Counted from the first letter of the stretch, positions 368 to 41,808 are shown. The stretch: 64,000 nucleotides of DNA from Clostridia bacterium (GCA_017935905.1 JAGBGO010000035.1:36064-100063); one strand, 5' to 3'. Notes: generated from the letters alone by a model not told the origin. Numbers and translations are program-made.

Positions 368-607
368 GTGCTGCGCCTCCTAATAAAATAAAAAAAGACG
401 CAAACTACCCCCTTATCCCACGGGGTATTTGCATCTCCAATCATCTCTGCTCTTTCATTATAAAAACAGAAGGCTGTTTTGTCAAGAGCACGGGTACGTG
501 CAAGCCCCCTCCCCGCTGAAAAGGCCGAGTCATTCAGCACGCTTTCGCAGGGTATTTGCCCGTGGAGCAAATGGAATTTACCCACGGGCAAATATGAAAA
601 AACAAAC

Positions 608-8964: not shown

Positions 8965-11900
8965 TTACGGGTTGTAGGCACTTGCCGCACAGCCATAATC
9001 ATAAACCGCTTGAATCAATGCATAGGACTTGCTCGTCTCGTCATTTGCAGCCACAAATGCATTGACGTAGGAGTTGATGCTGTAAGTAACTTCCTGTACA
9101 AGAACACCGTCTACGTACAAGCCAACTACAACGGGTGTGTCAAACTGGTGTGCATAAACTCCGTCGTAATCCCAGTAATAAATATTACCGGTGGACAATT
9201 CGAAGTTGTCATACGTTGTCTCGCCTACTTTGATCGTAATCTTGCTTGCGTCATTGGTTACGAACTTAAAGCGAAGACGTACGGTATTGAACAATGCGAG
9301 GCTTGCAGACTTCCAGTAGTTATTTGCATCGCTGCGTGTACCTACGCTCCGAACGCTTCCTGCATTGGTCATAGCTTGATTTACAGATGTCTTCTCACCG
9401 GCATCCAACTGGCTGTTGGCAAAGAGTGTAGCATCCGTAACACCTTCAAAGTACTTTTGAGACTCTGTTCCGTAGTTCAGCATTGCAATCAACACGTCGC
9501 GAAGTTTCTGCTTCTGACCGCTTGTATCCGCCGCTGCATCCTCTGCAGAAGGCAACATATTCATACAGTATTGTTGTAGGCTGTACGTCGCCACTTTATC
9601 TTTCCGCATACCGTCGATATACAATTCCGCAGAAATATTCTCACACATATCTTGAGGAAGAATATCCGGCAAGGAGAAGGTATACTGACCGTCGGCCTCT
9701 ACACCGTCCACCCAAATTACTTCACCTTTGAAGGTAAACTTCATTTGAACGGATTCCGCATCGTCAACATCAACATCGGCCTGCAAGTGAAGTGTAATCG
9801 CCTCATCCAACTCAGGTGCTGCCGTCTTAATTTCGCCTTCAACACCTTCTGTGATGGAGAAGTTCTTTACGTCAAAACCGGCAGTGCCGCCTTCCGCCAT
9901 AAAACCAAAATAAGCAATGTCCGCTGCAGTAGGCAAACGGTCAATCTTCTCAACAAACAATTGCTCACCGTCTAAGAACACTTGAATAGATTTTCCGGTT
10001 ACCTCTGCAGTTAAGTTAAACCACTGCTTGGTAGAGAAATCAAGACCGGATTTAACAACTACAAAGCTGTCAATATAAGCAATACCACTGGAATACGTAT
10101 GCTCCGGATCACTACCTTGTGCATGGCCACGGAACGACATCGTACCTGCAGCCATATCAAAGTCAAAACGAAGTTGATGGAATCTATAACCGCTGGATAC
10201 TTTCTCGCCAACCAAGAAACCGGCTCCGCCAACTTTGTCCACACCAGATGTGGTGATACATCTGTTCGGGGAGAAATCAACACTAACCTTATAACTTTCA
10301 AACGGAATCGTACGTGTACCTGAAATCCAAGACCCACCATTGCTTATAACAGGGACTCTCATGATGTAATCACCATTTTCATCTACGGTATAGCAATCCG
10401 TTTGATCATGAGCATTCAGTTGTTGAACATTTTTAAACCAATATTTAGCAGTATCATAATGTTCAAACACCTTCTCCGAAACGATATTGTCTACACCTTC
10501 ATAGATGCCGAAGTTCTTAATAGATTGTGTTGCTCCGGACGGGAAGAAACCAATATAGTTCAGTTCACCGGACGTAGGGAAATGACCCAATGATGCAGTT
10601 GTGATACTACCACCCGTTTTTGGATCGGTGAAATCCGGCGCTTGGTAGCCATCAAAATAAATCATAGTTTTCGTAGGTGTTACCTTGAAAACAACCTCAT
10701 GCCACGTGTCCGCATCAAAATCACCCTTATACCAAGAAGTTCCATACGTGGGTGTTGCAACATTCGTTCCACAATGCTCCCATACGTAAAAACTAACTGT
10801 CTTTGCGTCATAGTTCGGGTCAAAACGAATATTCATCCACTTAAGGTCATTAGGCGCGCTGCCATATCCCAAAAGAACACCCATATACTTACTTCCGTCA
10901 GACTTAATGTTCATCTTTACGGTATAACTGCCGTCCGGAAGTGCCACTTTCGTATAGGAATCCGTATGCGTTGTGGGAACCGAGTATACGTAATCCCCCT
11001 CGTCATCCAAATAGAACGTACCGGCGCAAGCACCTGCAAAATAATTCTTCATGTTTGCCTGATTTGCAAAAACATGTTTATAAATCAAATTTTCAGGACC
11101 GGTTGACGTCTCGGGAATAATCGATGTGTCTTCCGAATCCGGATAAACAATGTGAATCGTATGGGTTTGATTTCTTGCCGCTCCACCAAAACTCTGAATA
11201 CGGAAGTATACGCCATCCTCACCAGTTTCTTCACCCACGCCTTGGATTTCACTTAACTTTTGACGAGAAGTAAGCGCAGTGGCGGTCTCCGCATAAGAAT
11301 CAAATGCAGAACCGGTCTTGTCGCCAATTCCACGAATCATTACATTGCCGGTTTCATTCTTGGAGAAAGCAAATACATAGCCTTCCTCTGCAAAATCTGC
11401 GTAATTTCCATAGGTCACATGACTGTTAATGTCACGGATACTAATTGTGGAATATACAAGATTTTCATTGCTGCGCACATACCAAGTCATAGCTTGTTTG
11501 TTGGTATACGAAGGATTAATCGTACCCGAAGTGGAGGGATCACCCACTAACTGTACGAAAGAATAGTCATTGGTCGGATCATCCGGAATAATATGGATAT
11601 ATCCCTTACCATCTTTACCATCAGAACCAATCAAATCCGTCAACTTCACATGATGCTGTACAAAGCCCGGCTCAGCAGCAAGATTTACACGTACCGTATC
11701 ATAGACCATTGCCTCGTGGCTTTCGCTGAGAATCTCCGCGCCGCCACCTGTCGTCCAACGGCTGGGTTTTCTCTCGTCCACAGTAGAAGTCTTCGGTTTC
11801 GGATAAACAACTTTAATCGTGTATTTCAAATTGCTGGTTGCATCACCAAAACTCTGCAATCGGAAATATACACCATCTTCACCGGACGTCTCTCCGGCAC

Positions 11901-12525
11901 CTTGAATTTCACTCAATTTCAATCGGGAAATTAAAGAGGTCGTGTCCTCATAAGAATCAAAAGTGTTATATGTACGCTCGCCAATACCACGAATCATAAC
12001 GTTACCCACTTCATTCTTGGAGAAAGCAAACATAAATCCCTCGGATTTAATTTGAGATTGGATACCATAAATCTTAACAGGATTTCCTTCTCCTCTAAGA
12101 TATACAAGAGAGTTAGCACTACCATCGGTTCTAAGATACCAAGTCATCGCCTTTGTATCGCGTATCGGATCAATGCCGGTAGCACTGGGATCACCAACTA
12201 ATTGTACGAAAGAATAGTCCGTCATATAATTATCGCAGATAATATTGATATAGCCTTGACCATCTTCACCGTTCTCACCAATTAAATCCGTAAGAATCTG
12301 ATCCAGCTGCACATATCCGGAACCACTCTTCATATCCACTTCTACAATATCCGTAACCCAGGTAACGCTGGATTCGCTCAGTACCGATGCACCGGAACCG
12401 GCAGACCACTTAGAAGTAGACGTTGCCTCCGCACCTACACTCATCGGAAGCGTTACTGTAATCATCGAGCATACCATCAAAACCGTCAACAAAACGGAAA
12501 TGCTACTCTTCCACACTCTTTTCAT
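8965..12525 (-). CDS. Large (1186 aa) secreted multidomain protein
   Basis: It has an N-terminal signal peptide (MKRVWKSSISVLLTVLMVCSMITVTLPMSVGA). An internal ~220-aa tandem duplication follows. The C-terminal part has two concanavalin-A-like/LamG-type beta-sandwich segments. There is no LPXTG motif and no SLH domain. Confidence 0.6.
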   Translation of the reverse strand: MKRVWKSSISVLLTVLMVCSMITVTLPMSVGAEATSTSKWSAGSGASVLSESSVTWVTDIVEVDMKSGSGYVQLDQILTDLIGENGEDGQGYINIICDNYMTDYSFVQLVGDPSATGIDPIRDTKAMTWYLRTDGSANSLVYLRGEGNPVKIYGIQSQIKSEGFMFAFSKNEVGNVMIRGIGERTYNTFDSYEDTTSLISRLKLSEIQGAGETSGEDGVYFRLQSFGDATSNLKYTIKVVYPKPKTSTVDERKPSRWTTGGGAEILSESHEAMVYDTVRVNLAAEPGFVQHHVKLTDLIGSDGKDGKGYIHIIPDDPTNDYSFVQLVGDPSTSGTINPSYTNKQAMTWYVRSNENLVYSTISIRDINSHVTYGNYADFAEEGYVFAFSKNETGNVMIRGIGDKTGSAFDSYAETATALTSRQKLSEIQGVGEETGEDGVYFRIQSFGGAARNQTHTIHIVYPDSEDTSIIPETSTGPENLIYKHVFANQANMKNYFAGACAGTFYLDDEGDYVYSVPTTHTDSYTKVALPDGSYTVKMNIKSDGSKYMGVLLGYGSAPNDLKWMNIRFDPNYDAKTVSFYVWEHCGTNVATPTYGTSWYKGDFDADTWHEVVFKVTPTKTMIYFDGYQAPDFTDPKTGGSITTASLGHFPTSGELNYIGFFPSGATQSIKNFGIYEGVDNIVSEKVFEHYDTAKYWFKNVQQLNAHDQTDCYTVDENGDYIMRVPVISNGGSWISGTRTIPFESYKVSVDFSPNRCITTSGVDKVGGAGFLVGEKVSSGYRFHQLRFDFDMAAGTMSFRGHAQGSDPEHTYSSGIAYIDSFVVVKSGLDFSTKQWFNLTAEVTGKSIQVFLDGEQLFVEKIDRLPTAADIAYFGFMAEGGTAGFDVKNFSITEGVEGEIKTAAPELDEAITLHLQADVDVDDAESVQMKFTFKGEVIWVDGVEADGQYTFSLPDILPQDMCENISAELYIDGMRKDKVATYSLQQYCMNMLPSAEDAAADTSGQKQKLRDVLIAMLNYGTESQKYFEGVTDATLFANSQLDAGEKTSVNQAMTNAGSVRSVGTRSDANNYWKSASLALFNTVRLRFKFVTNDASKITIKVGETTYDNFELSTGNIYYWDYDGVYAHQFDTPVVVGLYVDGVLVQEVTYSINSYVNAFVAANDETSKSYALIQAVYDYGCAASAYNP
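11115..12414 (-). repeat. Intragenic tandem duplication (two ~650-bp diverged repeat units) inside the 1186-aa gene
   Basis: Protein residues ~36-255 and ~256-470 are colinear paralogues. Examples are ...GYINIICDNYMTDYSFVQLVGDPS... versus ...GYIHIIPDDPTNDYSFVQLVGDPS..., and ...GVYFRLQSFG... versus ...GVYFRIQSFG... Confidence 0.7.
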
Positions 12526-22519: not shown

Positions 22520-24688
22520 TTATTTACCTCCTATGCGGGACATACTTCTTTGTGCCATCACTAAATCGTGGTAAATGCCTTTCTTAGCCAACAATTCTTC
22601 GTGAGTACCCACTTCTGCAAGGCCGCCTTTGTCCAATACGAAAATGCGGGTAGCATTGCGCAGGGTGGAAAGTCGGTGGGCAATGGCAATCGTCGTGCGA
22701 TCCTGAATCAAAATCTGCAAAGCATCCTGAATCTGTTTTTCCGTCTCCGTATCCAAGGATGCGGTAGCCTCGTCCAGAATTAAAATCTTTGGATCCCGAA
22801 GCAGCGCCCGGGCAATGGCAATGCGTTGCCGTTCTCCTCCGGACAACGTCTGACCTTTCTCCCCCACTCGGGTTTGGTAGCCCTGGGGCAATTTACAAAT
22901 AAACTCGTGGGCACCGGCAATCTTAGCGGCGCGGATAATTTCATCTCGGGTCGCCGTAGGTTTCGCGTAGCGCAGATTGTCGTAGACACTGCCGGCAAAC
23001 AGGAAAGTTTCCTGCAGCACCGCACCCACTTGGGAGCGGAGAGATTCCTGAGAAAACGTGCGAATATCCGTGCCATCGATGCGGATTTCCCCTTCCGTTA
23101 CGTCATACAGACGCATCACCAGGTTAATCAACGTAGATTTGCCCACACCGGAATGCCCCACAAGCCCGATCATTTCACCGGGGTGAATTTCAAAGGAAAT
23201 ATCCTTTAACACTTCCGAAGTCGGATCGTAGCCAAAGGAAACGTGATCGAAGGTAATGGTGCCTTCAATCTCTACGTCCTTGGCAGCTTCCGTATCCGCA
23301 ACTTCCGGCGTTTCATCCAGCACGTCAAACAAACGCACCAGTGCGGTGACCGCCCGCGCCAGGGCAGTGGGAATTCTGGTGAGCCATTGGATGGGCCCGT
23401 AAATCAGGGATACGTACGACGTAAACATCGTAGCCTCACCAATGGTCATAGTGCCGCCCAAAATTTTCTTTCCCGTGTAATACAACAAGAAGTACGTGCC
23501 CAGCGTTAAAGAAAAACGAATAAAGGGAGAAACCTTCGCCCAGAAAACTTCGTTGCGCACGGCAATCTGCCGTTCCTCGCCTGCCGCGCTACCGTAGCGC
23601 TCCGCCTCCCGGTCTTCCGTACCGTAAGACTTTACCACCCGGATGCCGGAGAAAATATCAAACAACACGTTTCCGGCACGGCTGCCGGCACGCCACTGCT
23701 GACCGTAGAGCTTTCGCACCTTGTGATGGAAGCCTCGCATCGCGGCAATAGCAATAGGCATGGGTAAAATGACGATTAAGAACAACCGCCAATCGTATGC
23801 CAGCATAACGCCGGCGATGGCAAGAAGCAACAACACTTGCCCAAAAATATTGGGAATTTCATATACGATAAAAGCTTGTACGTCCTGAGTATCTTGCCCA
23901 ACCCTTTGAATCAATTCACCGGCAGTCCGACGGGAGATTTGGGAGAGGGACATACTGTGGACTTTTTCAAAAACGTTTTCCCGAAGGCGCACGGAAATCC
24001 GCACGGCAGCTTGCATAATGGTAATGTTTCGCAGGATATTCACCACTTCATTGAGCAAGTAAACGCCCAACATAGAAAGTACCACTGCTACAAAGCCCGC
24101 AGCCACTTGTCCCGGTGCAGATTGCACCAAGGCTTGCATTTCGCTGTTTCTGATGTAATGGTCTACCAGAACTTTGCTCACGTAAGGGCCTAACAAGCCT
24201 ACTGCCGCTGCCAGCAAGAAGAATACAGCGGATCCAATTAAATATTTCTTGTACGGCAGTGCCAGTTGTACAAATCGGGCAAAAACTTTCTTTTTGTCCA
24301 CGCATTTCATACAAACGCTGTCGGGTCTTGGCAATTTCGCACCGCACTTGGGACATTTTGCAGTACCGGCGACTTGTAAATCTTCCGGAAAATCCCCGTT
24401 TTTCTTGTAAAGATTCAGCAAACGCACGACTTCCGCAAACAAATTGCGGTGCTCCATAGTACTGCGACACAGAATGCGGAAATGGCCTTCTGCATCTTTA
24501 TATTCTAAAGAAACGCTGCCATTTTCCCCACGAAGCAAGAACTCCTGCACGTCGGAAAAAGCCACAACCCGCGCCTGTTCGCCGTCTTCAAAGCACGTCA
24601 AAACCTCCCGGGTCACTTCCACCCGGCCTGTACATAGGTCGCCGCCCAGCGTCAGGTTATATCGAATTTCATTTCCAGCCGCCTTCAA
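22520..24688 (-). CDS. ABC exporter (fused TMD-NBD half transporter) with a ~150-aa N-terminal cytoplasmic extension ending in a zinc ribbon
   Basis: A TTG start is preceded by an AAGGAGG ribosome-binding site. The N-terminal extension contains CPKCGAKLPRPDSVCMKC. Six transmembrane helices and a C-terminal nucleotide-binding domain follow, with Walker A GHSGVGKST, LSGGERQR and ILILDEATASLD. Confidence 0.75.
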   Translation of the reverse strand: MKAAGNEIRYNLTLGGDLCTGRVEVTREVLTCFEDGEQARVVAFSDVQEFLLRGENGSVSLEYKDAEGHFRILCRSTMEHRNLFAEVVRLLNLYKKNGDFPEDLQVAGTAKCPKCGAKLPRPDSVCMKCVDKKKVFARFVQLALPYKKYLIGSAVFFLLAAAVGLLGPYVSKVLVDHYIRNSEMQALVQSAPGQVAAGFVAVVLSMLGVYLLNEVVNILRNITIMQAAVRISVRLRENVFEKVHSMSLSQISRRTAGELIQRVGQDTQDVQAFIVYEIPNIFGQVLLLLAIAGVMLAYDWRLFLIVILPMPIAIAAMRGFHHKVRKLYGQQWRAGSRAGNVLFDIFSGIRVVKSYGTEDREAERYGSAAGEERQIAVRNEVFWAKVSPFIRFSLTLGTYFLLYYTGKKILGGTMTIGEATMFTSYVSLIYGPIQWLTRIPTALARAVTALVRLFDVLDETPEVADTEAAKDVEIEGTITFDHVSFGYDPTSEVLKDISFEIHPGEMIGLVGHSGVGKSTLINLVMRLYDVTEGEIRIDGTDIRTFSQESLRSQVGAVLQETFLFAGSVYDNLRYAKPTATRDEIIRAAKIAGAHEFICKLPQGYQTRVGEKGQTLSGGERQRIAIARALLRDPKILILDEATASLDTETEKQIQDALQILIQDRTTIAIAHRLSTLRNATRIFVLDKGGLAEVGTHEELLAKKGIYHDLVMAQRSMSRIGGK

Positions 24689-25227: not shown

Positions 25228-27441
25228 TTACTCCTCCACACCGATATTCTTCAGTGCGCTTAACTGAAGTTGATATAACCGGTAATAAATTCCTTTTTGT
25301 TTCAAAAGCTCCACGTGGGTGCCGGTTTCCGGCATCTTTCCCTTCTCAATGACAATTAAACTGTCCGCATTGCGCAGGGTGGAAAGTCTGTGGGCGATCA
25401 TAATGGTGGTCCGGTTCTCCGAAAGTCGTTCCAGGGCCTCCTGAATGGTGCGCTCCGTGGCCGTATCCATGGCCGCCGTGGCTTCATCCAAAATTAAAAT
25501 CTTAGGGTCTTTCAAAATGGCGCGGGCAATGGAAATCCGCTGTCGCTCTCCCCCGGATAAATCCTGATGTCCAAAGCCGATCTTGGTATGATAGCCGTTG
25601 GGCAACCGCATAATAAAATCATGGGCACCGGCAATCCGCGCCGCATGCAGAATTTCTTCTTTGGAAGCGTCCGGATTGGCGTAGGCAATATTCTCCAGCA
25701 CCGTGCCTGCAAATAAATAAGTTTCCTGAGAAACGATGGACACGCTTCTGCGCAAATCCTCAAAAGCCATATCTTTCACATTGACGCCGTCGATATAAAC
25801 GCCGCCGGAATCCACGTCATACAAGCGAATCAACAGATTCGCAAGGGTACTCTTGCCGGCACCGGAATGGCCTACGATACCTAAACGGTGTCCGGCGGAA
25901 ATTTTGAAAGAAATCCCTTCCAGCGTCTTGCGCCCTTTCTCATAAGAGAACTCCACGTCCCGGAACTCCACGTCTCCCCGAATTTCCGGCATAGACACAG
26001 GATGCTCCGCTTCCACAACGTCGGGAGAAGCGTCCGCAATTTCAAACAAACGTTGCATGCCGTTGACGCACCGGGTAAAATTATCCGACATATTGACAAA
26101 GCTAAACATAGGACCGTTCAAAATGCCCACGTAGGAAATAAATACCATTAAAGTACCGTAGGTAATCTGTCCTTTCATCGCCATCCAGCCGCCCACGCCC
26201 CAGACCAGTAAAGTGGAGAAATAAATCAGCAAATTCAAAGACGGGTGACGGGTGTTGTGGAAATACGTCAATTTTCTGGTCATCTCCGCCGCTTGTGTTG
26301 AGTAATAGTTGAATCGGCCGGTCTCTTCTTTCTCCCGGGCAAAGGCTTTCACCACCCGAACGCCGTTCAAAGAGTCGGACAGCACGCTGTTCATAGAGCG
26401 GTTCCGGGCATAACTTCTGGCATTCATCCACCGCTGCTGTTTCAGCACCCGGGTGACGGCATACAGGTAAAATGGCAGCGGAATGAGGGACGCAATGGCC
26501 AAAGGCACGTCAATGGTCAGCATTAAAATAAACACCGTCACCACTTGAATCAGGCTGGAGAAGAACACGGGAAAACCGTTTACAAAGAACCAGTAAATGG
26601 CATTGGAGTCCCGGTTAATCTGGGTCATCAAGCCGCCGGTCTGCCGCCCTGTAAAGAAGCGCATAGACAGTCTGCGAATGCTGTCGAAAATGGTGCGTTT
26701 CAAGTCGTAAATAATCCTGGCAGAGACTTTCGCCGTTACAATATCGCTGACCATCGTAATAAGAATCGTAGCGATTTGCGTGGCCAGCATCAGCGTAACC
26801 ACAAACAAAAGATCTCCGTAGAACTTTCCCCGAATATCCAGCACTTGGTCGTAGAAGAACGACGTGGACAAATACGGAGAAACGATGCCCAATATACTGG
26901 TAATGGCCATAGCCAAAAGGGCCAGCAGAATCTGTCCCTTGAATTTCTTGGCAAGGGTTAAGAATCGACCCACAATACTGGCTTTGTCCATACAGTCAGG
27001 ACAAACCTTTCGGTTTGGATCGGGATAACGGCGGTGACATTTCGGGCAAAATTGCTCCTGCAGGAAATCCTGTTCGTCTACCGTAATCTCACCGGTATCC
27101 ATTTGCATTTTTAAGTATTTAGCGAAAAGCCGGCACTCTTGCTTTCGGCTGTTGGTTAAAGTAGCAAGCAGCTTCCGCTTCCCTTGATATTCTCCAATGA
27201 ATACGCAAGTGCCGATCTTCTCTTCAATGGCTGGATTCTGTAAATCTTTCAAGGCATAGGTTTGGACGCGGTCTCCGTCGGAAATCAGCAGCGTGTCTTT
27301 GGTGGCCGCCAAAACGATTTCCCGCTCGTCATAATGGGCATTCAAATCCGCCCGGGCAAACAAAAGAACGTCCTCCGGGCTAACTTTCATCTTATGTAAT
27401 ATTTCGCCTGCACCATCGGTGCGTTGCGATAATTCCAACAT
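25228..27441 (-). CDS. ABC exporter (fused TMD-NBD) paralogue with an N-terminal zinc-ribbon extension
   Basis: The N-terminal ~150 aa contain CPKCHRRYPDPNRKVCPDC. Transmembrane helices and a nucleotide-binding domain follow (GHSGAGKST, LSGGERQR, ILILDEATAAMD). Confidence 0.75.
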   Translation of the reverse strand: MLELSQRTDGAGEILHKMKVSPEDVLLFARADLNAHYDEREIVLAATKDTLLISDGDRVQTYALKDLQNPAIEEKIGTCVFIGEYQGKRKLLATLTNSRKQECRLFAKYLKMQMDTGEITVDEQDFLQEQFCPKCHRRYPDPNRKVCPDCMDKASIVGRFLTLAKKFKGQILLALLAMAITSILGIVSPYLSTSFFYDQVLDIRGKFYGDLLFVVTLMLATQIATILITMVSDIVTAKVSARIIYDLKRTIFDSIRRLSMRFFTGRQTGGLMTQINRDSNAIYWFFVNGFPVFFSSLIQVVTVFILMLTIDVPLAIASLIPLPFYLYAVTRVLKQQRWMNARSYARNRSMNSVLSDSLNGVRVVKAFAREKEETGRFNYYSTQAAEMTRKLTYFHNTRHPSLNLLIYFSTLLVWGVGGWMAMKGQITYGTLMVFISYVGILNGPMFSFVNMSDNFTRCVNGMQRLFEIADASPDVVEAEHPVSMPEIRGDVEFRDVEFSYEKGRKTLEGISFKISAGHRLGIVGHSGAGKSTLANLLIRLYDVDSGGVYIDGVNVKDMAFEDLRRSVSIVSQETYLFAGTVLENIAYANPDASKEEILHAARIAGAHDFIMRLPNGYHTKIGFGHQDLSGGERQRISIARAILKDPKILILDEATAAMDTATERTIQEALERLSENRTTIMIAHRLSTLRNADSLIVIEKGKMPETGTHVELLKQKGIYYRLYQLQLSALKNIGVEE

Positions 27442-36596: not shown

Positions 36597-37298
36597 TTAC
36601 CCGAAATCTCCAAGGCCGCCCTGCATCGCTTCCTTAATCTTCTCCAAAGCGGCTTTTTCAATTCTGGAGACATAGGAACGGGAAATGCCCAACATCCGTC
36701 CCACTTCTCTTTGGGTTTTCTCCACGCCGTTCAAAAGGCCGTACCGAAGTTGAATAATCAGCCGCTCTCGTTCTTCTTGCAGATTTTGAACGGCTTTGCG
36801 AATGGCTTTTTTCTGCACGTTCAAATCCACTTCTTCCACTAATTCAGAGTCGTCGCAACGGAGCAAATCCATGAGCACGATTTCGTTGCCGTCCCGATCA
36901 ATGCCAATGGGTTCGTGCATGGATACTTCTCCATTGTATTTTTTGTTGGCGCGTATGTACATCAGAATTTCATTTTGAATACAGGAAACGGCATACGTCC
37001 CCAGCCGAGCGCCTTTGCTTCCGTCAAAAGAAGACAGGGCTTTGATCAAGCCAATGGTGCCGATAGAAATCAGTTCGTCCGGCGTGGCACTGACCGTACT
37101 GTATTTTTTCGCCGTGTGGGCAACTAAACGAAGGTTGTGTTCCAAAAGAATCCGACGGCTTTCGCTGCGCTGTCCTTCCGTGGCTCCGTTTCGAAATCGG
37201 TTTAAATGATACGCTTCCTCTTCTTGGGTAAGCGGTTGGGGAAATCCGCTACTTCCGCCAATATACGTGGAAAATTGCTTGTTTTGCTCCTGCTCCAT
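36597..37298 (-). CDS. sigK: Sporulation sigma factor, most similar to SigK and lacking a pro-sequence
   Basis: Region 2 reads FPQPL...LLEHNLRLVAHTAKKY...LISIGTIGLIKA. Region 4.2 reads TQREVGRMLGISRSYVSRIEKAAL, and the ISRSYVSRIEK block matches SigK. There is no hydrophobic N-terminal pro-peptide and the gene is uninterrupted. Confidence 0.65.
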   Translation of the reverse strand: MEQEQNKQFSTYIGGSSGFPQPLTQEEEAYHLNRFRNGATEGQRSESRRILLEHNLRLVAHTAKKYSTVSATPDELISIGTIGLIKALSSFDGSKGARLGTYAVSCIQNEILMYIRANKKYNGEVSMHEPIGIDRDGNEIVLMDLLRCDDSELVEEVDLNVQKKAIRKAVQNLQEERERLIIQLRYGLLNGVEKTQREVGRMLGISRSYVSRIEKAALEKIKEAMQGGLGDFG

Positions 37299-37445
37299 AG
37301 TGCCCTCGTGCTGCCTCGTTGCTTTCTTAAACAGTATATGAGGCCCTCCGGGTTGTTCGTGTCTGTCTTATTTGGCTTTGGAAAAATATTTATGTAAAAT
37401 GTGGTTGACGAGCCGTGTTTTTGTTGCTATAATAAGTTTCGCTTT

Positions 37446-37537
37446 GGAGAAGTACCCAAGTAGGTTGAAGGGGACGGTTTGCTAAATCGTTAGGTCGGGT
37501 GACCGGCGCCGGGGTTCGAATCCCCGCTTCTCCGCCA
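37446..37537 (+). tRNA. tRNA-Ser (anticodon GCU), class II with a long variable arm; CCA is encoded
   Basis: The cloverleaf is GGAGAAG acceptor stem / D-arm / anticodon loop TTGCTAA / long variable arm GGTCGGGTGACCGGCGCC / T-arm GGGGTTCGAATCCCC / CTTCTCC-GCCA. Confidence 0.85.
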
Positions 37538-37542
37538 AACAC

Positions 37543-37576
37543 AAAGAGACACCTTTTGAGGTGTCTCTTTTGTGTT
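37543..37576 (+). terminator. Rho-independent terminator after tRNA-Ser
   Basis: The hairpin AGAGACACCttttgaGGTGTCTCT is followed by TTTGTGTTT. Confidence 0.65.
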
Positions 37577-37778
37577 TCGTCGAAAACTGCGGCGGGGATG
37601 AGAAGCCCGCAGGGGTTCGTCGCAGGTGCCGGGCGCAGAGGGCGACCGGACGCCGAAGTCTCGAGCAGCGCAGCATTTCCCGGCACCGCCGACACGCGGT
37701 GGGAAATGCCAGTAAGCGCAGAGTATCCCCGCTTCTCTTTGTTTCACAGAAACTTGCGGCGGGGATGAGAAGCCCGCA
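37575..37778. repeat. GC-rich structured intergenic block with two 37-38-bp direct repeats and a duplicated tRNA-Ser 3'-end fragment
   Basis: Direct repeat 1 at 37575-37611 and direct repeat 2 at 37741-37778 are AACT(T)GCGGCGGGGATGAGAAGCCCGCAGGGGTTCGTC. Between them is a 9-bp-stem hairpin (GCATTTCCC...GGGAAATGC at 37663-37699). ATCCCCGCTTCTC at 37715-37727 copies the tRNA 3' end. Confidence 0.6.
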
Positions 37779-37782
37779 GGGG

Positions 37783-37915
37783 TTCGTCTTCTCAATGGGA
37801 TGTAAAAAGCCAAAATCGGCTTAAATTATACTTTTTTCAGGCCAATTTGTATACAAACCGGCTTTTTACCGCAAAAACATACCGGAATTCCGGTCAAACC
37901 GCGGAAATCCGGTAT
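37783..37915. repeat. Dispersed ~110-130-bp intergenic repeat, copy A
   Basis: Copy A is about 75% identical to copy B at 53643-53760. Shared blocks are CAATGGGATGTAAAA, CCAA(A)TTGTATACAAA, TTTTACCG.GAAAA.ATACCGGAATT. Copy A also has the perfect palindromes TTTGTATACAAA (37846-37857) and ACCGGAATTCCGGT (37871-37884). An inverted terminal copy TTTACATCCCA lies at 37938-37948. Confidence 0.6.
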
Positions 37916-37965
37916 AAAATTGTCTTAAAAATCAAATTTACATCCCACTGGCATTTTACCAAAAC

Positions 37966-39018
37966 TCATTTCAAATACAACGCTTTGAAATCTTCTCGAT
38001 CCCGAAGGGGGTCAAAGCAGGGATGATTATTCAAACTATCAATAAAATCATCCAAATCCGTAGCATCGCGGTCCGTCTTGATTGTCTCCCCCGCTACACG
38101 GTCAAAGAAGGGGGCCGTGAAACGGTACTGTGTTTGCTGGCCGTATTGTACCATTTCCTCCGCGTGAAATCTCGCCGTTCGCAACGCCGCAATAACTTCG
38201 TCGTATCGTTTTTCTTCGCAGAGCATAAACGCTTTATCCATGGCGTTATATTGTAAAATATTGTGATAATATTGGTAATTGCCATCCGGGAAAAGAATTT
38301 TCAAGATTTGTTCGATGGCATCGCGGGCTGCGATCGAGTAGTTTGCAACCTTGAATTGTAACAAAAATTCATTCAAACAATTTTCTGCAACCTTTTGCCT
38401 GTGGCAAATCTTTTCCTCACCTTCTAAACACCAGCAAAGGGCACTATCTCGATCATGGTCATTTTCGATCCGCATCGCATACTCTTTTGCTTCGGTCTTT
38501 CTTCCCAGCATATGAAGGGGCCAAACAATTCCCTGCAACGCACGATTACGCAATTTAGAATCGTTTGTATTGTCCAAAACAAGTTTGTAGTGTTTAGCAG
38601 AGCTTTCAAGCAACCGATTGTATGATTCCGGATCTTCCGCTAGGGAACCAACATAGAATTCTGCAGAAGCAAGCCATTCCATATATTCCATATTTCCGGG
38701 ATACGCCTCTACTGCGCGGACAGCCACCGCGTAATTTTTCTCCTTGTCATCATGTTTCCAATATTCATGAAACGCCTCTTCAAACTCTGCCTTTCTCAAA
38801 TCCTTTTGATACTGATCCATTTCCAATAAATAATCGGTGGTGACGCCAAAGAGATTCGCAATAGGCGGTATCAGGGATATATCCGGCATTGCACAGTCGG
38901 TTTCCCAACGACTTACAGCCTGCGGGGATATCGACAACAATTCAGCAAGGTTTTCCTGGGTCATATCGGCTTCCCGCCGAAGTTTTTTGATAATTTTACC
39001 AAAAGACATATAGATCAT
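37966..39018 (-). CDS. XRE-family HTH transcriptional regulator with a large C-terminal helical domain (possibly TPR-like); RNPP-like architecture
   Basis: The N-terminal Cro/C1-type HTH is IKKLRREADMTQENLAELLSISPQAVSRWE. The C-terminal domain is about 280 aa and helical. Confidence 0.6.
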   Translation of the reverse strand: MIYMSFGKIIKKLRREADMTQENLAELLSISPQAVSRWETDCAMPDISLIPPIANLFGVTTDYLLEMDQYQKDLRKAEFEEAFHEYWKHDDKEKNYAVAVRAVEAYPGNMEYMEWLASAEFYVGSLAEDPESYNRLLESSAKHYKLVLDNTNDSKLRNRALQGIVWPLHMLGRKTEAKEYAMRIENDHDRDSALCWCLEGEEKICHRQKVAENCLNEFLLQFKVANYSIAARDAIEQILKILFPDGNYQYYHNILQYNAMDKAFMLCEEKRYDEVIAALRTARFHAEEMVQYGQQTQYRFTAPFFDRVAGETIKTDRDATDLDDFIDSLNNHPCFDPLRDREDFKALYLK

Positions 39019-39213
39019 ACTCCTGTTTCATTACTCAACCGGTTTGTACTTCTATTATATTAAAGCATATTGATTTGTCCATCTCTCGTTAATTGAGCAT
39101 CCGTAAATTCAAAATTGGGTCGTTTGTTTTATGAATTTTTTATGTCTTTTTTATTGACTTTCATTAAACACTATGTTATAAAGAAATCAATAAACTACAA
39201 GGAGCTCCCAACA

Positions 39214-39441
39214 ATGGACGGCAAAAATGTACCACGTTTCTTTTTAACATTATTCTTAGGCTGGATCGGTAGCTTTATTATCAACCACTCCGGCTTGAAA
39301 CCCGAAGGCTACACATGCAGAACGACAGCTTATTTCTTCTTGACCTATCTTACTTGCGGTATTTATCAGCTTGTTGCATCCATCTGCAACTTTGGCTTCA
39401 GCCCCAATAAAGAGAAGAACATTGGCTATTCCAAGGACTAA
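39214..39441 (+). CDS. Small (75 aa) two-transmembrane membrane protein, divergent from the XRE regulator
   Basis: An AAGGAG ribosome-binding site lies 7 nt before the ATG at 39214. The sequence FFLTLFLGWIGSFIINHSGLKPEGY...YFFLTYLTCGIYQLV resembles a TM2-domain-like protein. Confidence 0.4.
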   Translation: MDGKNVPRFFLTLFLGWIGSFIINHSGLKPEGYTCRTTAYFFLTYLTCGIYQLVASICNFGFSPNKEKNIGYSKD

Positions 39442-39503
39442 TAAATAACCTTGCAGGCATACCAAGACGGATCGGTGCAAACCGGTCCGTTTTTTACGCA
39501 AAT

Positions 39504-40352
39504 TCAGCCCAAGCGAAAAGCCTCTTTCAGCATCTCGTAGAATGCCCGCACAAAACCGGGAGCCGTTTGCGCCTCTCGGCAATATAAATACACGTCACGA
39601 CTGTAAGCGCCCACCGGCCACAATTCAATGCCCTCAGAAAACAAACCCCGCCAGGAATGTTCCGGCACAAAAGCAATGCCCAGACCCAACTCCACGCATT
39701 TTCGAATGTAAAATGGGTCCTCACTTTGCAGCGTAATTTCCGGTTCAAAACCCATATCCCGGCAAATGGTTTGGGTAAATTGATACAAACTGCCCGGGGC
39801 ACTCATGGTAATAAACGATTTCTCCCCAATGGCAGCGCGGTCTATCACGGTGCCCGCCGGAAAAGTCCCTTTCTGAGCGGCCAACACAATATTTTCCCGG
39901 AAAAGTTTTTCCCGCACCATGCCCGGTAAATTCAATTCTTGGTCAGAAACCAGCACGTCAAAATCCGCATTCTCCCGCTTCACTTCATGGGTGGTCACAA
40001 TATGGACGCCGGAATACTGCAATTGAAAACGTTCGATAGCCTCCATCACTGTGCGGCGGTTAATGTGAATGCCCACGTGCAGGGTGCCCCGATTGGTATT
40101 GCCCGAGGCGACGCTGGCGGCCTGTTCCAAAATCCCCAGGGCGCGCTTTGTCTCCAGGTAGAAGGCCTTCCCCCGCTCGTTCAAGGTGATACGGTTGGCG
40201 GTACGGGTAAAAAGGTGCACCGATAACTCTTGCTCCAGCCGTTTGATGCTTTGAGAAATATCAGAAGGTGGCACTTGAAACTTCCGTGCCGTTTTAGAAA
40301 AATTCTGGGTCTGTGCCGCGTCGCAGAAATATTTTAATTGCAGTAACTCCAT
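39504..40352 (-). CDS. LysR-family transcriptional regulator
   Basis: The N-terminal wHTH is MELLQLKYFCDAAQTQNFSKTARKFQVPPSDISQSIKRLE. A substrate-binding domain follows. Confidence 0.8.
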   Translation of the reverse strand: MELLQLKYFCDAAQTQNFSKTARKFQVPPSDISQSIKRLEQELSVHLFTRTANRITLNERGKAFYLETKRALGILEQAASVASGNTNRGTLHVGIHINRRTVMEAIERFQLQYSGVHIVTTHEVKRENADFDVLVSDQELNLPGMVREKLFRENIVLAAQKGTFPAGTVIDRAAIGEKSFITMSAPGSLYQFTQTICRDMGFEPEITLQSEDPFYIRKCVELGLGIAFVPEHSWRGLFSEGIELWPVGAYSRDVYLYCREAQTAPGFVRAFYEMLKEAFRLG

Positions 40353-40491
40353 TTTACCCACCCCTTCCCGGATACTATAACACATTTTGCTATCACTTTC
40401 AACATATAGTATTGTACTTCATTTCATTATTTACATAATAGTATCCCCGTGCTATGATTGCACTCGATCCAAGTTGAAAGGGGTTTTCCTG

Positions 40492-40806
40492 ATGACAGAA
40501 TTATTGGAAATGGTTATGTTAATATGTTTTGGAATTTCTTGGCCGATGAACGTGGTAAAATCCTACAAGGCAAGAAGCACCCAAGGAAAGAGCCTTACGT
40601 TCCTTTTGATGATCATTATCGGGTATATTGCCGGTATTATTTCCAAATTGATGAATCCTGCCTTTATGTCCGCAATTTCGGACAAATGGTTTGTGCTTTT
40701 CATTTACTTCTTAAACCTTTTTATGGTATTGCTGGATTTCATTCTCTACTTCCGCAATGCACACTTGATGCACAAATACGCACCGCTTAAAAAGGCCCAT
40801 TGCTGA
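40492..40806 (+). CDS. Small membrane protein (104 aa, three transmembrane helices), divergent from the LysR regulator
   Basis: A ribosome-binding site (AAAGGGG) precedes the ATG at 40492. The protein is hydrophobic and no family is recognised. Confidence 0.4.
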   Translation: MTELLEMVMLICFGISWPMNVVKSYKARSTQGKSLTFLLMIIIGYIAGIISKLMNPAFMSAISDKWFVLFIYFLNLFMVLLDFILYFRNAHLMHKYAPLKKAHC

Positions 40807-40817
40807 GACAGGCTCTC

Positions 40818-40846
40818 TTTACAAGTTTTTGTCCTTTTGATATAAT
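40818..40846 (+). promoter_or_regulatory. Sigma-A promoter for cysK
   Basis: TTTACA-17-TATAAT lies about 30 nt upstream of the cysK start. Confidence 0.55.
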
Positions 40847-40878
40847 GGCAAAGATTATGAAGAAAGAGATTCTATCCT

Positions 40879-41808
40879 ATGATTTGCAATACAATTTTGG
40901 ACGCTTTGGGCAACACACCGATGATTAAACTGAACCGCATGGTCGGCAAAGACTGCGCCGATATTTTGGTGAAATTCGAAGGTTTGAACGTAGGTGGTTC
41001 CATTAAAACCAGAACCGCATACAATATGATTCTTCGCGCGGAGCAACAAGGTCTGCTCACGCCGGAGTCCATCATTGTAGAGCCCACTTCCGGCAACCAG
41101 GGAATTGGTCTATCGTTGGTTGGCGCGGTAAGAGGATACAAAGTAAAGATCATTATGCCCGACTCCGTCAGCGAAGAACGGCGGAAGTTGGTGAAGCAAT
41201 ACGGTGCTGAAGTTATTTTGGTACACGACGATGGCAATATTGGTTTGTGTATTGAAGAATGTATCGGTTTAGCTCAGAAGATGCAGCAAGAAGACCCGCG
41301 GGTATTTGTTCCCCAGCAATTTGAGAATCCCGCCAATCCGGAGGTGCAGCGAAGCGTTACCGGAATGGAAATCTTAGCCCAAGTAAATGGTCCCATTCAC
41401 GGCTTCTGCTCCGGCATCGGCACCGGCGGTACCATTACCGGCATTGGTGAAACGCTGAAACAAGCCAATCCGGAGATAACCATTTGGGCAGTAGAGCCGG
41501 AGAATGCTGCTATTTTATCCGGCGGTTCCATTGGCACCCACTTGCAGATGGGCATTGGGGACGGTTTGATTCCCCAAATTTTGAATCAAGAGATTTATCA
41601 GGACGTTTGTATTATTAAGGACGAAGAGGCATTACAGACTTCCAAGGATTTAGCCGCCAAGGAAGGGATTCTTTGCGGCATCAGTTCCGGCACCAACGTA
41701 GCGGCGGCCATGAAGTTAGCCAAGAAGCTGGGCCCCGGTCACACAGTAGTCACCGTGCTTCCCGACACCGCGGAGCGTTATTTCTCCACACCCCTTTTTG
41801 CTGAATAA
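40879..41808 (+). CDS. cysK: Cysteine synthase A (O-acetylserine sulfhydrylase)
   Basis: It has the PLP-enzyme lysine motif (..GGSIKTR..) and the glycine-rich loop GTGGT. It is 309 aa. Confidence 0.85.
   Translation: MICNTILDALGNTPMIKLNRMVGKDCADILVKFEGLNVGGSIKTRTAYNMILRAEQQGLLTPESIIVEPTSGNQGIGLSLVGAVRGYKVKIIMPDSVSEERRKLVKQYGAEVILVHDDGNIGLCIEECIGLAQKMQQEDPRVFVPQQFENPANPEVQRSVTGMEILAQVNGPIHGFCSGIGTGGTITGIGETLKQANPEITIWAVEPENAAILSGGSIGTHLQMGIGDGLIPQILNQEIYQDVCIIKDEEALQTSKDLAAKEGILCGISSGTNVAAAMKLAKKLGPGHTVVTVLPDTAERYFSTPLFAE

Follow-up and report, generated by a model that had tools for sequence, protein, structure and literature searches.

The 64,000-nucleotide stretch of Clostridia bacterium DNA analysed here (GCA_017935905.1, JAGBGO010000035.1:36064-100063; hereafter the window) carries, directly behind a tRNA-Ser(GCT) gene, a GC-rich block with direct repeats. 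On sequence comparison this block is probably a clostridial relative of the tRNA-linked repeats (TLR; RtT in the case of the E. coli tyrT-tyrV units), tied to tRNA-Ser, a reading to which we assign a probability of roughly 0.7. The unit is described as a distant RtT relative and not as a member of the Rfam family RtT (RF00391), because the threshold of that model is not passed. [quoted passage not shown] The primary sources (Egan & Landy, 1978; Bosl & Kersten, 1991; Rudd, 1999) are quoted here as cited in PMC8144298 and PMC3318445.

The general clostridial unit is about 190-205 bp long and consists of an intrinsic terminator, a short A-rich spacer, the 5' strand GGCGGGGAT, a GA-GAA...UUC hairpin, two more GC-rich hairpins with conserved junctions, and finally a copy of the 13-21 nt that end the upstream tRNA. 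Within this copy, the T-stem segment is predicted to pair with the 5' strand and thereby to close a four-helix fold. In the window the order is tRNA, terminator T2, unit 1 (with a tRNA-end copy of 13 nt and its own terminator lost), spacer, and the stump of a second unit. The features of the locus, with helices numbered P1 to P4 and scores from the covariance model R1 described below, are as follows.

37446-37537, + strand: intact tRNA-Ser(GCT) gene with encoded CCA (ARAGORN; Rfam tRNA, 55 bits)
37543-37570, + strand: intrinsic terminator hairpin of the T2 type, a 12-bp stem followed by a T-rich tail, between the tRNA and unit 1
37573-37621, + strand: direct repeat copy 1, formed by the spacer (37573-37590) and the 5' module of unit 1
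37591-37737, + strand: unit 1, a putative full tRNA-linked-repeat (RtT-like) unit of about 147 nt (R1, 190 bits)
37591-37599, + strand: unit 1, 5' strand of P1
37600-37618, + strand: unit 1, conserved junction GA and hairpin P2
37619-37624, + strand: unit 1, junction GTCGCA
37625-37654, + strand: unit 1, hairpin P3
37660-37662 with 37721-37723, + strand: unit 1, CTC/GAG pairing
37673-37709, + strand: unit 1, hairpin P4
37710-37720, + strand: unit 1, junction
37725-37733, + strand: unit 1, 3' strand of P1, inside the tRNA 3'-end copy that closes the unit
37725-37737, + strand: 13-nt copy of the tRNA-Ser 3' end, ATCCCCGCTTCTC, comprising the end of the T-loop, the 3' strand of the T-stem and most of the 3' strand of the acceptor
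37740-37788, + strand: direct repeat copy 2, formed by a spacer (37740-37757) and the 5' stump of the truncated second unit
37758-37788, + strand: unit 2 stump, reduced to the 5' strand of P1 (37758-37766) and P2 (37769-37785), without body or tRNA-end copy

The two direct repeats are 49 nt long and identical at 44 of 49 positions (90%), with a start-to-start distance of 167 nt. Their 3'-most 34 nt are fully identical (37588-37621 = 37755-37788), and this 34-mer has no further occurrence in the 64-kb window; 100 shuffles never produced it. The original prediction, made from the sequence of the window alone, had described repeats of 37-38 bp at 37575-37611 and 37741-37778; the repeats themselves are real, and their extent is that given in the list. 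Repeat 1 is best read as the 5' part of unit 1, and repeat 2 as the 5' stump of a truncated unit 2, over which R1 gives a weak global match (37758-37904, 22 bits) that comes from the 5' module only. The 118 nt between the repeats have 66.9% GC as against 46.6% for the window as a whole; the slightly different interval for which about 68% had been predicted, 37612-37740, measures 66.7%, so that its atypical composition is confirmed. This is the only block in the window with a 143-nt stretch of at least 64% GC (maximum 0.70, start 37589).

The predicted hairpin with a 9-bp stem is likewise present, GCATTTCCC at 37673-37681 pairing with GGGAAATGC at 37701-37709, and it encloses an inner 5-bp stem. 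The 13-nt copy of the tRNA 3' end was correctly noticed and was misplaced by ten bases, 37715-37727 having been given for a site that lies to the right of it at 37725-37737; the corresponding sequence of the tRNA itself is at 37520-37532. The copy in the window is truncated and stops before CGCCA, whereas relatives of the window unit have an 18-21-nt copy that includes CCA and is followed by a terminator. Sequence resembling the tRNA 3' end precedes both repeats, as had been stated: repeat 1 begins 40 nt past the tRNA 3'-end sequence, with CGCCA and the terminator in between, and repeat 2 begins 2 nt past the tRNA-end copy.

Related loci are designated by L numbers, and many of them were fetched via contigs carrying an identical SigK or SigK orthologues, sigK being the neighbour of the tRNA-Ser gene in the window. 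The unit was found behind tRNA-Ser(GCT), tRNA-Ser(TGA) and tRNA-Ser(CGA) in five genomic contexts, all in uncultured Clostridia. Beside sigK it follows tRNA-Ser(GCT) in several species (L007, L015/L016, L018, and fragments at the contig ends of L008 and L017); it follows tRNA-Ser(TGA) in L026, tRNA-Ser(CGA) in L027, and another tRNA-Ser(CGA) in L028/L029. Every copy terminates in the 3' end of the local tRNA, usually with a terminator of its own, and in L026, L027 and L028/L029 the order is tRNA, terminator, spacer, unit, own tRNA 3'-end copy and second terminator. The surroundings, judged by eye, are GC-rich in L026 and AT-rich in L027. The tRNA-Ser(GCT) gene is 100% identical in every related sigK locus, and hairpins homologous to T2, with compensated stems, occur in L009, L015 and L023.

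The 22-nt core of the repeat was found in one of 185,579 species genomes, a metagenome-assembled genome of Clostridia from water-buffalo cecum (L007). That locus reads tRNA-Ser(GCT), a terminator of the type designated T1, spacer, GGCGGGGATGAGAAGCCCGCAGGGGTTCG, a GC-rich body of the window type and ATCCCCGCTTCTCCGCCA, the last of these being exactly the last 18 nt of the tRNA including CCA. The original prediction had allowed for generic REP-like repeats, and this does not agree with a 22-mer so confined, whose two copies in the window both lie at this locus; dispersal of the REP/BIME kind at unrelated intergenic sites of the window was accordingly not seen.

The loci L026, L027 and L028 were reached by searching the translations of open reading frames (ORFs) that a gene caller had run across the unit, of which there are only six among 1.84 billion representative proteins. 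ORFs of 79-198 residues are called on the strand opposite to the unit at L015:892-1488, L016:2413-2805, L026:4001-4447, L027:288-701 and L028:305-544. They match no Pfam family and also cross the tRNA gene, and are almost certainly spurious database proteins.

The number of full units (0, 1 or 2) varies within species. Two full units in tandem are present in L015 (tRNA, T1, unit, T2, unit, T2, stump), and L016, from the same species and with identical flanks, has one full unit and the stump. A single unit whose tRNA-end copy is mutated is present in L018; the unit of L009 is decayed, and L023 has none. Among loci with an identical SigK, L003 and L004 are identical to the window throughout the locus. 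L001 has near-identical flanks and only one repeat copy, falling short of the window by exactly 167 bp, and the stump is its sole remnant of a unit. The segment concerned is as follows.

37622-37788, or a cyclic shift of it within the 34-nt identity, + strand: 167-bp segment that L001 lacks and that the window, L003 and L004 share

The repeat copy of L001 carries its own single-base variant, GAAACCTGCGG, and its short form is therefore not a simple collapse by the assembler. An insertion polymorphism of this kind had been anticipated from the window sequence, and L001 provides it. Such units would be gained and lost through unequal homologous recombination between their repeated parts, as the breakpoints suggest: the window and L001 would differ by a crossover inside the 34-nt identity, and L015 and L016 by one whole unit. 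Eleven independent metagenome contigs with sigK (L002, L005, L006, L008, L014, L017, L019-L021, L024 and L025) end inside the tRNA-Ser gene or the first unit, which fits assembly breaks caused by repeat and polymorphism. In practical terms, the units break metagenome assemblies at tRNA-Ser genes and draw spurious ORF calls.

The fold was assessed with the covariance model R1, for which four GCT-type units, all clostridial, were combined with a structure drawn by hand. R1 recovers all other units at 102-193 bits. In the model-fitted alignment of eight units, standard pairs make up 97.4% of the pair cells, and both-sided changes occur in 12 of the 43 pairs, a count reached in none of 500 shuffles and compared with at most 3 in shifted controls. 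RNAalifold, applied independently to a plain MAFFT alignment, finds seven compensated pairs, and the L007 unit has a folding z of -3.2. Compensation is seen in P3 (GGUG/CGCC to GGAG/CUCC, and CCGG/CCGG to CCGA/UCGG) and in the inner part of P4 (ACCGC/GCGGU to ACCAC/GUGGU), and the outer part of P4 shows three swaps in L028. The junctions GA, GUCGNA, GAAGUCUCGAGCA and AAGCGNAGAGU are near-invariant. The U-G pairs in P3 and the G-U pairs in P1 exist on the + strand alone, an indication of an RNA on the strand of the tRNA. The fold is conserved by compensatory change. Of the three possibilities raised by the original prediction, a structured small RNA fits best.

The closing helix P1 differs from one tRNA context to another, pairing GGCGGGGAU with AUCCCCGCU in the GCT type, GGCGAGAU with AUCUCGCC in L027, GAAAGAUAGG with CCUGUCUUUC in L026, and GGGUG with CACCC in L028. 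The 5' strand of P1 co-varies with the tRNA-derived strand, and the helix tracks the local tRNA. Among species of the sigK clade the unit is 93-97% identical, as compared with 72-82% for sigK DNA and 66-89% for the 150 nt upstream of the tRNA; this conservation reflects strong constraint, recent transfer, or both.

Several other identities were considered for the fold and rejected. The spacing is wrong for a CRISPR mini-array. A tmRNA or permuted tmRNA gives weak matches only, driven by the T-arm; group II intron domain V, the hammerhead and other small ribozymes have no Rfam matches and their cores do not fit; a T-box would need a UGGN partner for the tRNA end, and there is none; and a tRNA-like cloverleaf does not agree with the P3 loop, which is not anticodon-like. 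Miniature elements of the IS200/IS605 type and sites resembling integron attC were set aside as well, no transposase or integrase being nearby and the unit occurring only at tRNA-Ser genes.

At E up to 10, the window block matches a single Rfam family, RtT, with 14.5 bits and E = 2.2 over 37577-37742; the L028 unit scores 19.4 bits with E = 0.21. Neither score reaches the 45-bit gathering threshold. The alignments, global in both cases, bring together the 5' strand, GG-AUGAGAA, the GAA...UUC(G) hairpin, AAGCG.AGAGU(A)AUCC and the tRNA end. In the opposite direction, R1 was applied to the E. coli K-12 tyrT-tyrV locus (L030), where one unit lies between the two tRNA-Tyr genes and three lie behind tyrV, each starting with GGGGAAGGAUGAGAAGC and finishing with the last 19 nt of tRNA-Tyr. 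The top four R1 matches in L030 are these four units (23.9, 23.5, 23.2 and 14.4 bits; next 6.3), and one of the matched units overlaps the annotated rttR. In a search of 121 kb, three E. coli units past the speed filters have E of about 0.005-0.007, values that are to be taken as rough.

The likeness extends to layout and modules. As in the E. coli tyrT-tyrV TLRs (RtT/RttR, RF00391), the clostridial units stand directly behind a tRNA gene on the same strand, the window unit beginning 54 nt after the CCA of tRNA-Ser and the units at every related locus being placed likewise. The tandem units are similar in size (178 bp for the E. coli tyrT TLR). The E. coli units close with approximately the 19 last nt of the upstream tRNA including CCA; in the clostridial units the corresponding copy is identical to the tRNA end over the full 18 nt in L007, L015 (both units), L026 and L028, measures 13 nt in the window and is mutated in L018 and L027. 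Copy number falls within the range of TLRs, with one unit and a stump in the window and in L016, two and a stump in L015, and the stump in L001. In both, the T-stem/acceptor part of the copy finds its pairing partner in the 5' strand (GGGAAGGAU and AUCCUUCCC for E. coli, the GCT-type pairing given above for the clostridial unit), and both contain GAUGAGAA, the GAA...UUC hairpin, CUCGAGC and AAGCG-AGAGU(A)-AUCC. The hosts differ, Clostridia and tRNA-Ser isoacceptors for the one and Enterobacteria and tRNA-Tyr for the other. The clostridial central domain, with P3 and a long two-part P4, is larger than that of E. coli RtT and different from it, and most clostridial units include an intrinsic terminator, which the E. 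coli tyrT spacer lacks.

The TLRs of the E. coli rRNA operons rrnA, rrnB and rrnD (RrA, RrB and RrF), which lie between terminators T1 and T2, have the same layout as the clostridial units: stable-RNA 3' end, first terminator, body, repeat of the 3' end, and second terminator (rrnB, L031, compared with L015, L018, L026, L027 and L028). The rrn TLRs follow 5S rRNA and the clostridial units follow a tRNA, and R1 does not recognise the body of the rrnB TLR, its best match there being a terminator hairpin at 8.8 bits. The rrn TLRs are produced by read-through of T1, the 3' end of the RNA maps just past the repeat, and they bind Hfq and CsrA in vitro, in RrB through GGA motifs (PMC8144298). RNAs of the RtT family beside other tRNAs have been seen on Northern blots in Pasteurellaceae (PMC4986893).

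Two further Rfam families match weakly and are weak leads only. The Xanthomonas small RNA sX4 (RF02223) spans a tRNA-Ser-like 3' part and a spacer, ending in GGGGGGUGAGA; it matches the tRNA and the start of the unit at L028:442-598 (40.9 bits) and at 37474-37601 of the window (19.3 bits), against a threshold of 70, the score coming mostly from the tRNA. sX4 itself may be a tRNA-Ser gene with the start of a tRNA-linked repeat. The Clostridiales-2 RNA (RF02937) matches L028 only, in the 5' module of the unit at 416-482 on the - strand (AAGGGGGGUGAUGAG-hairpin-CGUCGAAGG), with 19.8 bits against a threshold of 58.6.

Some of the evidence weighs against a transcribed unit of the TLR class. In addition to the Rfam scores below threshold and the rough R1 E-values, it is the 5' and 3' modules that carry the R1 alignment with the E. 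coli units, and the central domains differ. The covariation was counted on an alignment fitted to the model, which favours the structure, and of the only eight units available several are closely related. The segment of terminator plus unit is 100% identical between L007 and L018 although sigK DNA is 78% identical, which points to recent transfer, beyond vertical constraint alone. The distal tRNA-end copy decays, being truncated in the window and mutated to CCGTCA in L018 and TTTGCCA in L027, so that the acceptor/CCA part of the copy is evidently without strong selection. Finally, the block comes after a good terminator and has no predicted promoter of its own; among the predicted + strand promoters, that of the tRNA gene alone could drive the GC-rich block.

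37405-37433, + strand: sigma-70-type promoter of the tRNA-Ser gene (TTGACG, 17-nt spacer, TATAAT, with TG; 11 of 12 consensus positions)

By analogy with the E. coli TLRs, the clostridial unit would probably be made by read-through of the tRNA terminator, a mechanism proposed because the rrn TLR is made by read-through of T1 and has its 3' end just after the repeat. Transcription would start at the tRNA promoter and pass a leaky first terminator, and the unit would then be excised by tRNA-end-trimming nucleases, with the copy of the tRNA end in P1 as their processing signal. The product would be a folded RNA of about 150 nt whose level follows tRNA-Ser synthesis.

A short basic peptide encoded by the unit was also considered; its start codon would lie in the conserved GATGAGAAG, in the manner of tpr ('protamine-like protein') in the E. 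coli rtT unit. In E. coli K-12 tpr is annotated inside rttR and begins with the ATG of GGATGAGAAGC; the same ATG is followed by an open frame in the window unit, and gene callers have placed ORFs across the unit on the opposite strand. This is nevertheless hardly credible, because the frame is broken in L027, with a stop at codon 4 (ATG AGA ACG TAG), and in L026, where there is no ATG at that position. The tpr-like ORF is not conserved in the clostridial units. The ORFs across the block have no Pfam matches, no ribosome-binding site precedes the ATG, and the substitutions are paired stem changes and not changes at synonymous sites.

The leading interpretation of the original prediction was that the repeats are attL and attR of a prophage or island integrated at the 3' end of tRNA-Ser and afterwards almost wholly deleted, with the GC-rich part as a foreign remnant. 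The direct duplication of the tRNA 3' end, the atypical GC between the repeats, the strain that lacks the 167-bp segment and the holin gene directly behind the tRNA of L022, a relative in which this tRNA may be used for integration, would all be expected of such a scar. The likeness to att sites is indeed close in that some 20 bp of the tRNA 3' terminus are duplicated directly, with the intact tRNA on one side and the displaced fragment on the other, and in that presence and absence differ by strain. In contrast to such elements, the clostridial 'element' is only about 200 bp long, geneless and tandem, and its conserved interior fold uses the duplicated tRNA strand. The body of about 150 nt recurs with the same boundaries in at least eight units at five loci and in tandem, which is not the product of a one-off deletion, and it never encloses or adjoins element genes in these five contexts behind tRNA-Ser. 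Repeated, identical and near-complete deletions are not a credible source of this pattern, and for this reason the scar is rejected as very unlikely; the compensatory changes that keep the helices, the co-variation of the 5' strand with the tRNA-derived strand and the resemblance to E. coli TLRs speak against it as well. No genes lie between the repeats at any locus, and the viral, phage, plasmid and JGI searches were empty.

A somewhat less improbable, although still distinctly unlikely, alternative to a tRNA-linked repeat is that the unit of about 200 bp is a miniature integrative cassette specific for tRNA-Ser 3' ends, served by a recombinase in trans or carried along by homologous recombination after transfer. 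Its hairpins would then form a recombination site, as double-stranded or folded single-stranded DNA, and not an RNA, and the newer copies would be those nearest the tRNA. Such mobility might coexist with an RNA function. In keeping with a cassette, 18-21-bp direct repeats of the tRNA 3' end flank the unit, most cleanly in L007, and the terminator that comes with each unit makes the end of the tRNA gene whole again. Unit number ranges from 0 to 2 among strains, the T1-type terminator and unit are 92-100% identical across species with 72-78% sigK DNA identity (in L007 and L018 the T1 terminator and spacer are 100% identical), and the family occurs behind three tRNA-Ser isoacceptors in surroundings whose G+C differs by eye. 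The holin gene behind the L022 tRNA is possibly phage-derived, and the acceptor 3' strand of the L028 tRNA mismatches its own 5' strand yet equals the copy in the unit. Against a cassette, all observed polymorphisms are explained by unequal recombination between existing repeats, the strand-specific G-U pairs and conserved single-stranded junctions are typical of a functional RNA, and the E. coli relatives are stable, transcribed chromosomal parts of tRNA and rRNA operons (PMC8144298).

The searches made likewise yielded no recombinase and no phage or plasmid copy. BLASTN against phage and plasmid collections returned no match. Viral contigs were scanned five times for exact patterns (repeat core, three segments of the body, T1 terminator) and once in translation, likewise without a match. 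Metagenome contigs of JGI, scanned twice with 22-27-mers of the body, gave no match in a collection from which the clade seems to be missing, and the single scan of the genome collection, made with the repeat core and not the body, returned one syntenic locus (L007).

Two tRNA genes deserve separate mention. In L022, the same sigK/tRNA-Ser(GCT) locus in a related species, unrelated DNA at 1183-1702 with a holin (PF16079) and a 387-residue ORF follows directly after the tRNA CCA, which suggests a prophage or remnant integrated at the same tRNA 3' end; its other end and any integrase lie beyond the contig. In L028 the tRNA-Ser(CGA) gene at 496-584 (- strand) has acceptor mismatches, 5:68 and 6:67, flagged by the tRNA model, and its last 18 nt are identical to the copy that ends the adjacent unit. 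This tRNA could reflect sequence exchange with the tRNA-end copy of the unit, or it could be a pseudogene.

Whatever its mobility, the clostridial tRNA-linked repeat adds clear structural evidence and a much wider phyletic reach to the old TLR class. A relative in uncultured ruminant-gut Clostridia suggests an older or more mobile class than an oddity of Enterobacteria would be, and the clostridial variation is usable for structure inference, singling out the conserved junctions GA-GAA, GUCGNA, GAAGUCUCGAGCA and AAGCGNAGAGU. A broader and tentative proposition, in our estimate rather unlikely, is that TLR/RtT-type units are a widespread and ancient class that propagates at stable-RNA 3' ends across phyla, with a closing helix that is built from the T-stem strand of the host tRNA and re-adapts to each new tRNA. 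If this were so, the closing helix, the near-identical units in diverged species and the L028 tRNA would mean that units move between tRNA genes and genomes, perhaps by recombination templated on the tRNA end, and that they may exchange sequence with the tRNA gene.

The genes adjoining the tRNA and the repeat array lie on the opposite strand.

36597-37298, - strand: sigK, neighbour gene
37966-39018, - strand: helix-turn-helix gene, neighbour gene

Comparison of the window from 37790 to 40880 with L007, L009, L016 and L023 showed that the gene content between the array and the PALP gene (conserved, cysteine-synthase-like) varies by species. In the window this interval contains a 350-residue HTH_3 protein, a 75-residue ORF and a LysR regulator, and in related species a GtrA-like protein, or LysR only. 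The region downstream of the tRNA-Ser gene and repeat array is a variable locus. Elsewhere in the window, several collinear direct repeats of 27-132 nt with 71-82% identity and a spacing of about 650-660 bp lie at 11140-12318, which looks like tandem duplication of a segment of about 650 bp, with paralogous genes or domains. Two collinear direct repeats 2714 bp apart, at 22653-22853 and 25367-25567, measure 52 nt (81% identity) and 114 nt (73%) and probably represent paralogous coding sequence.

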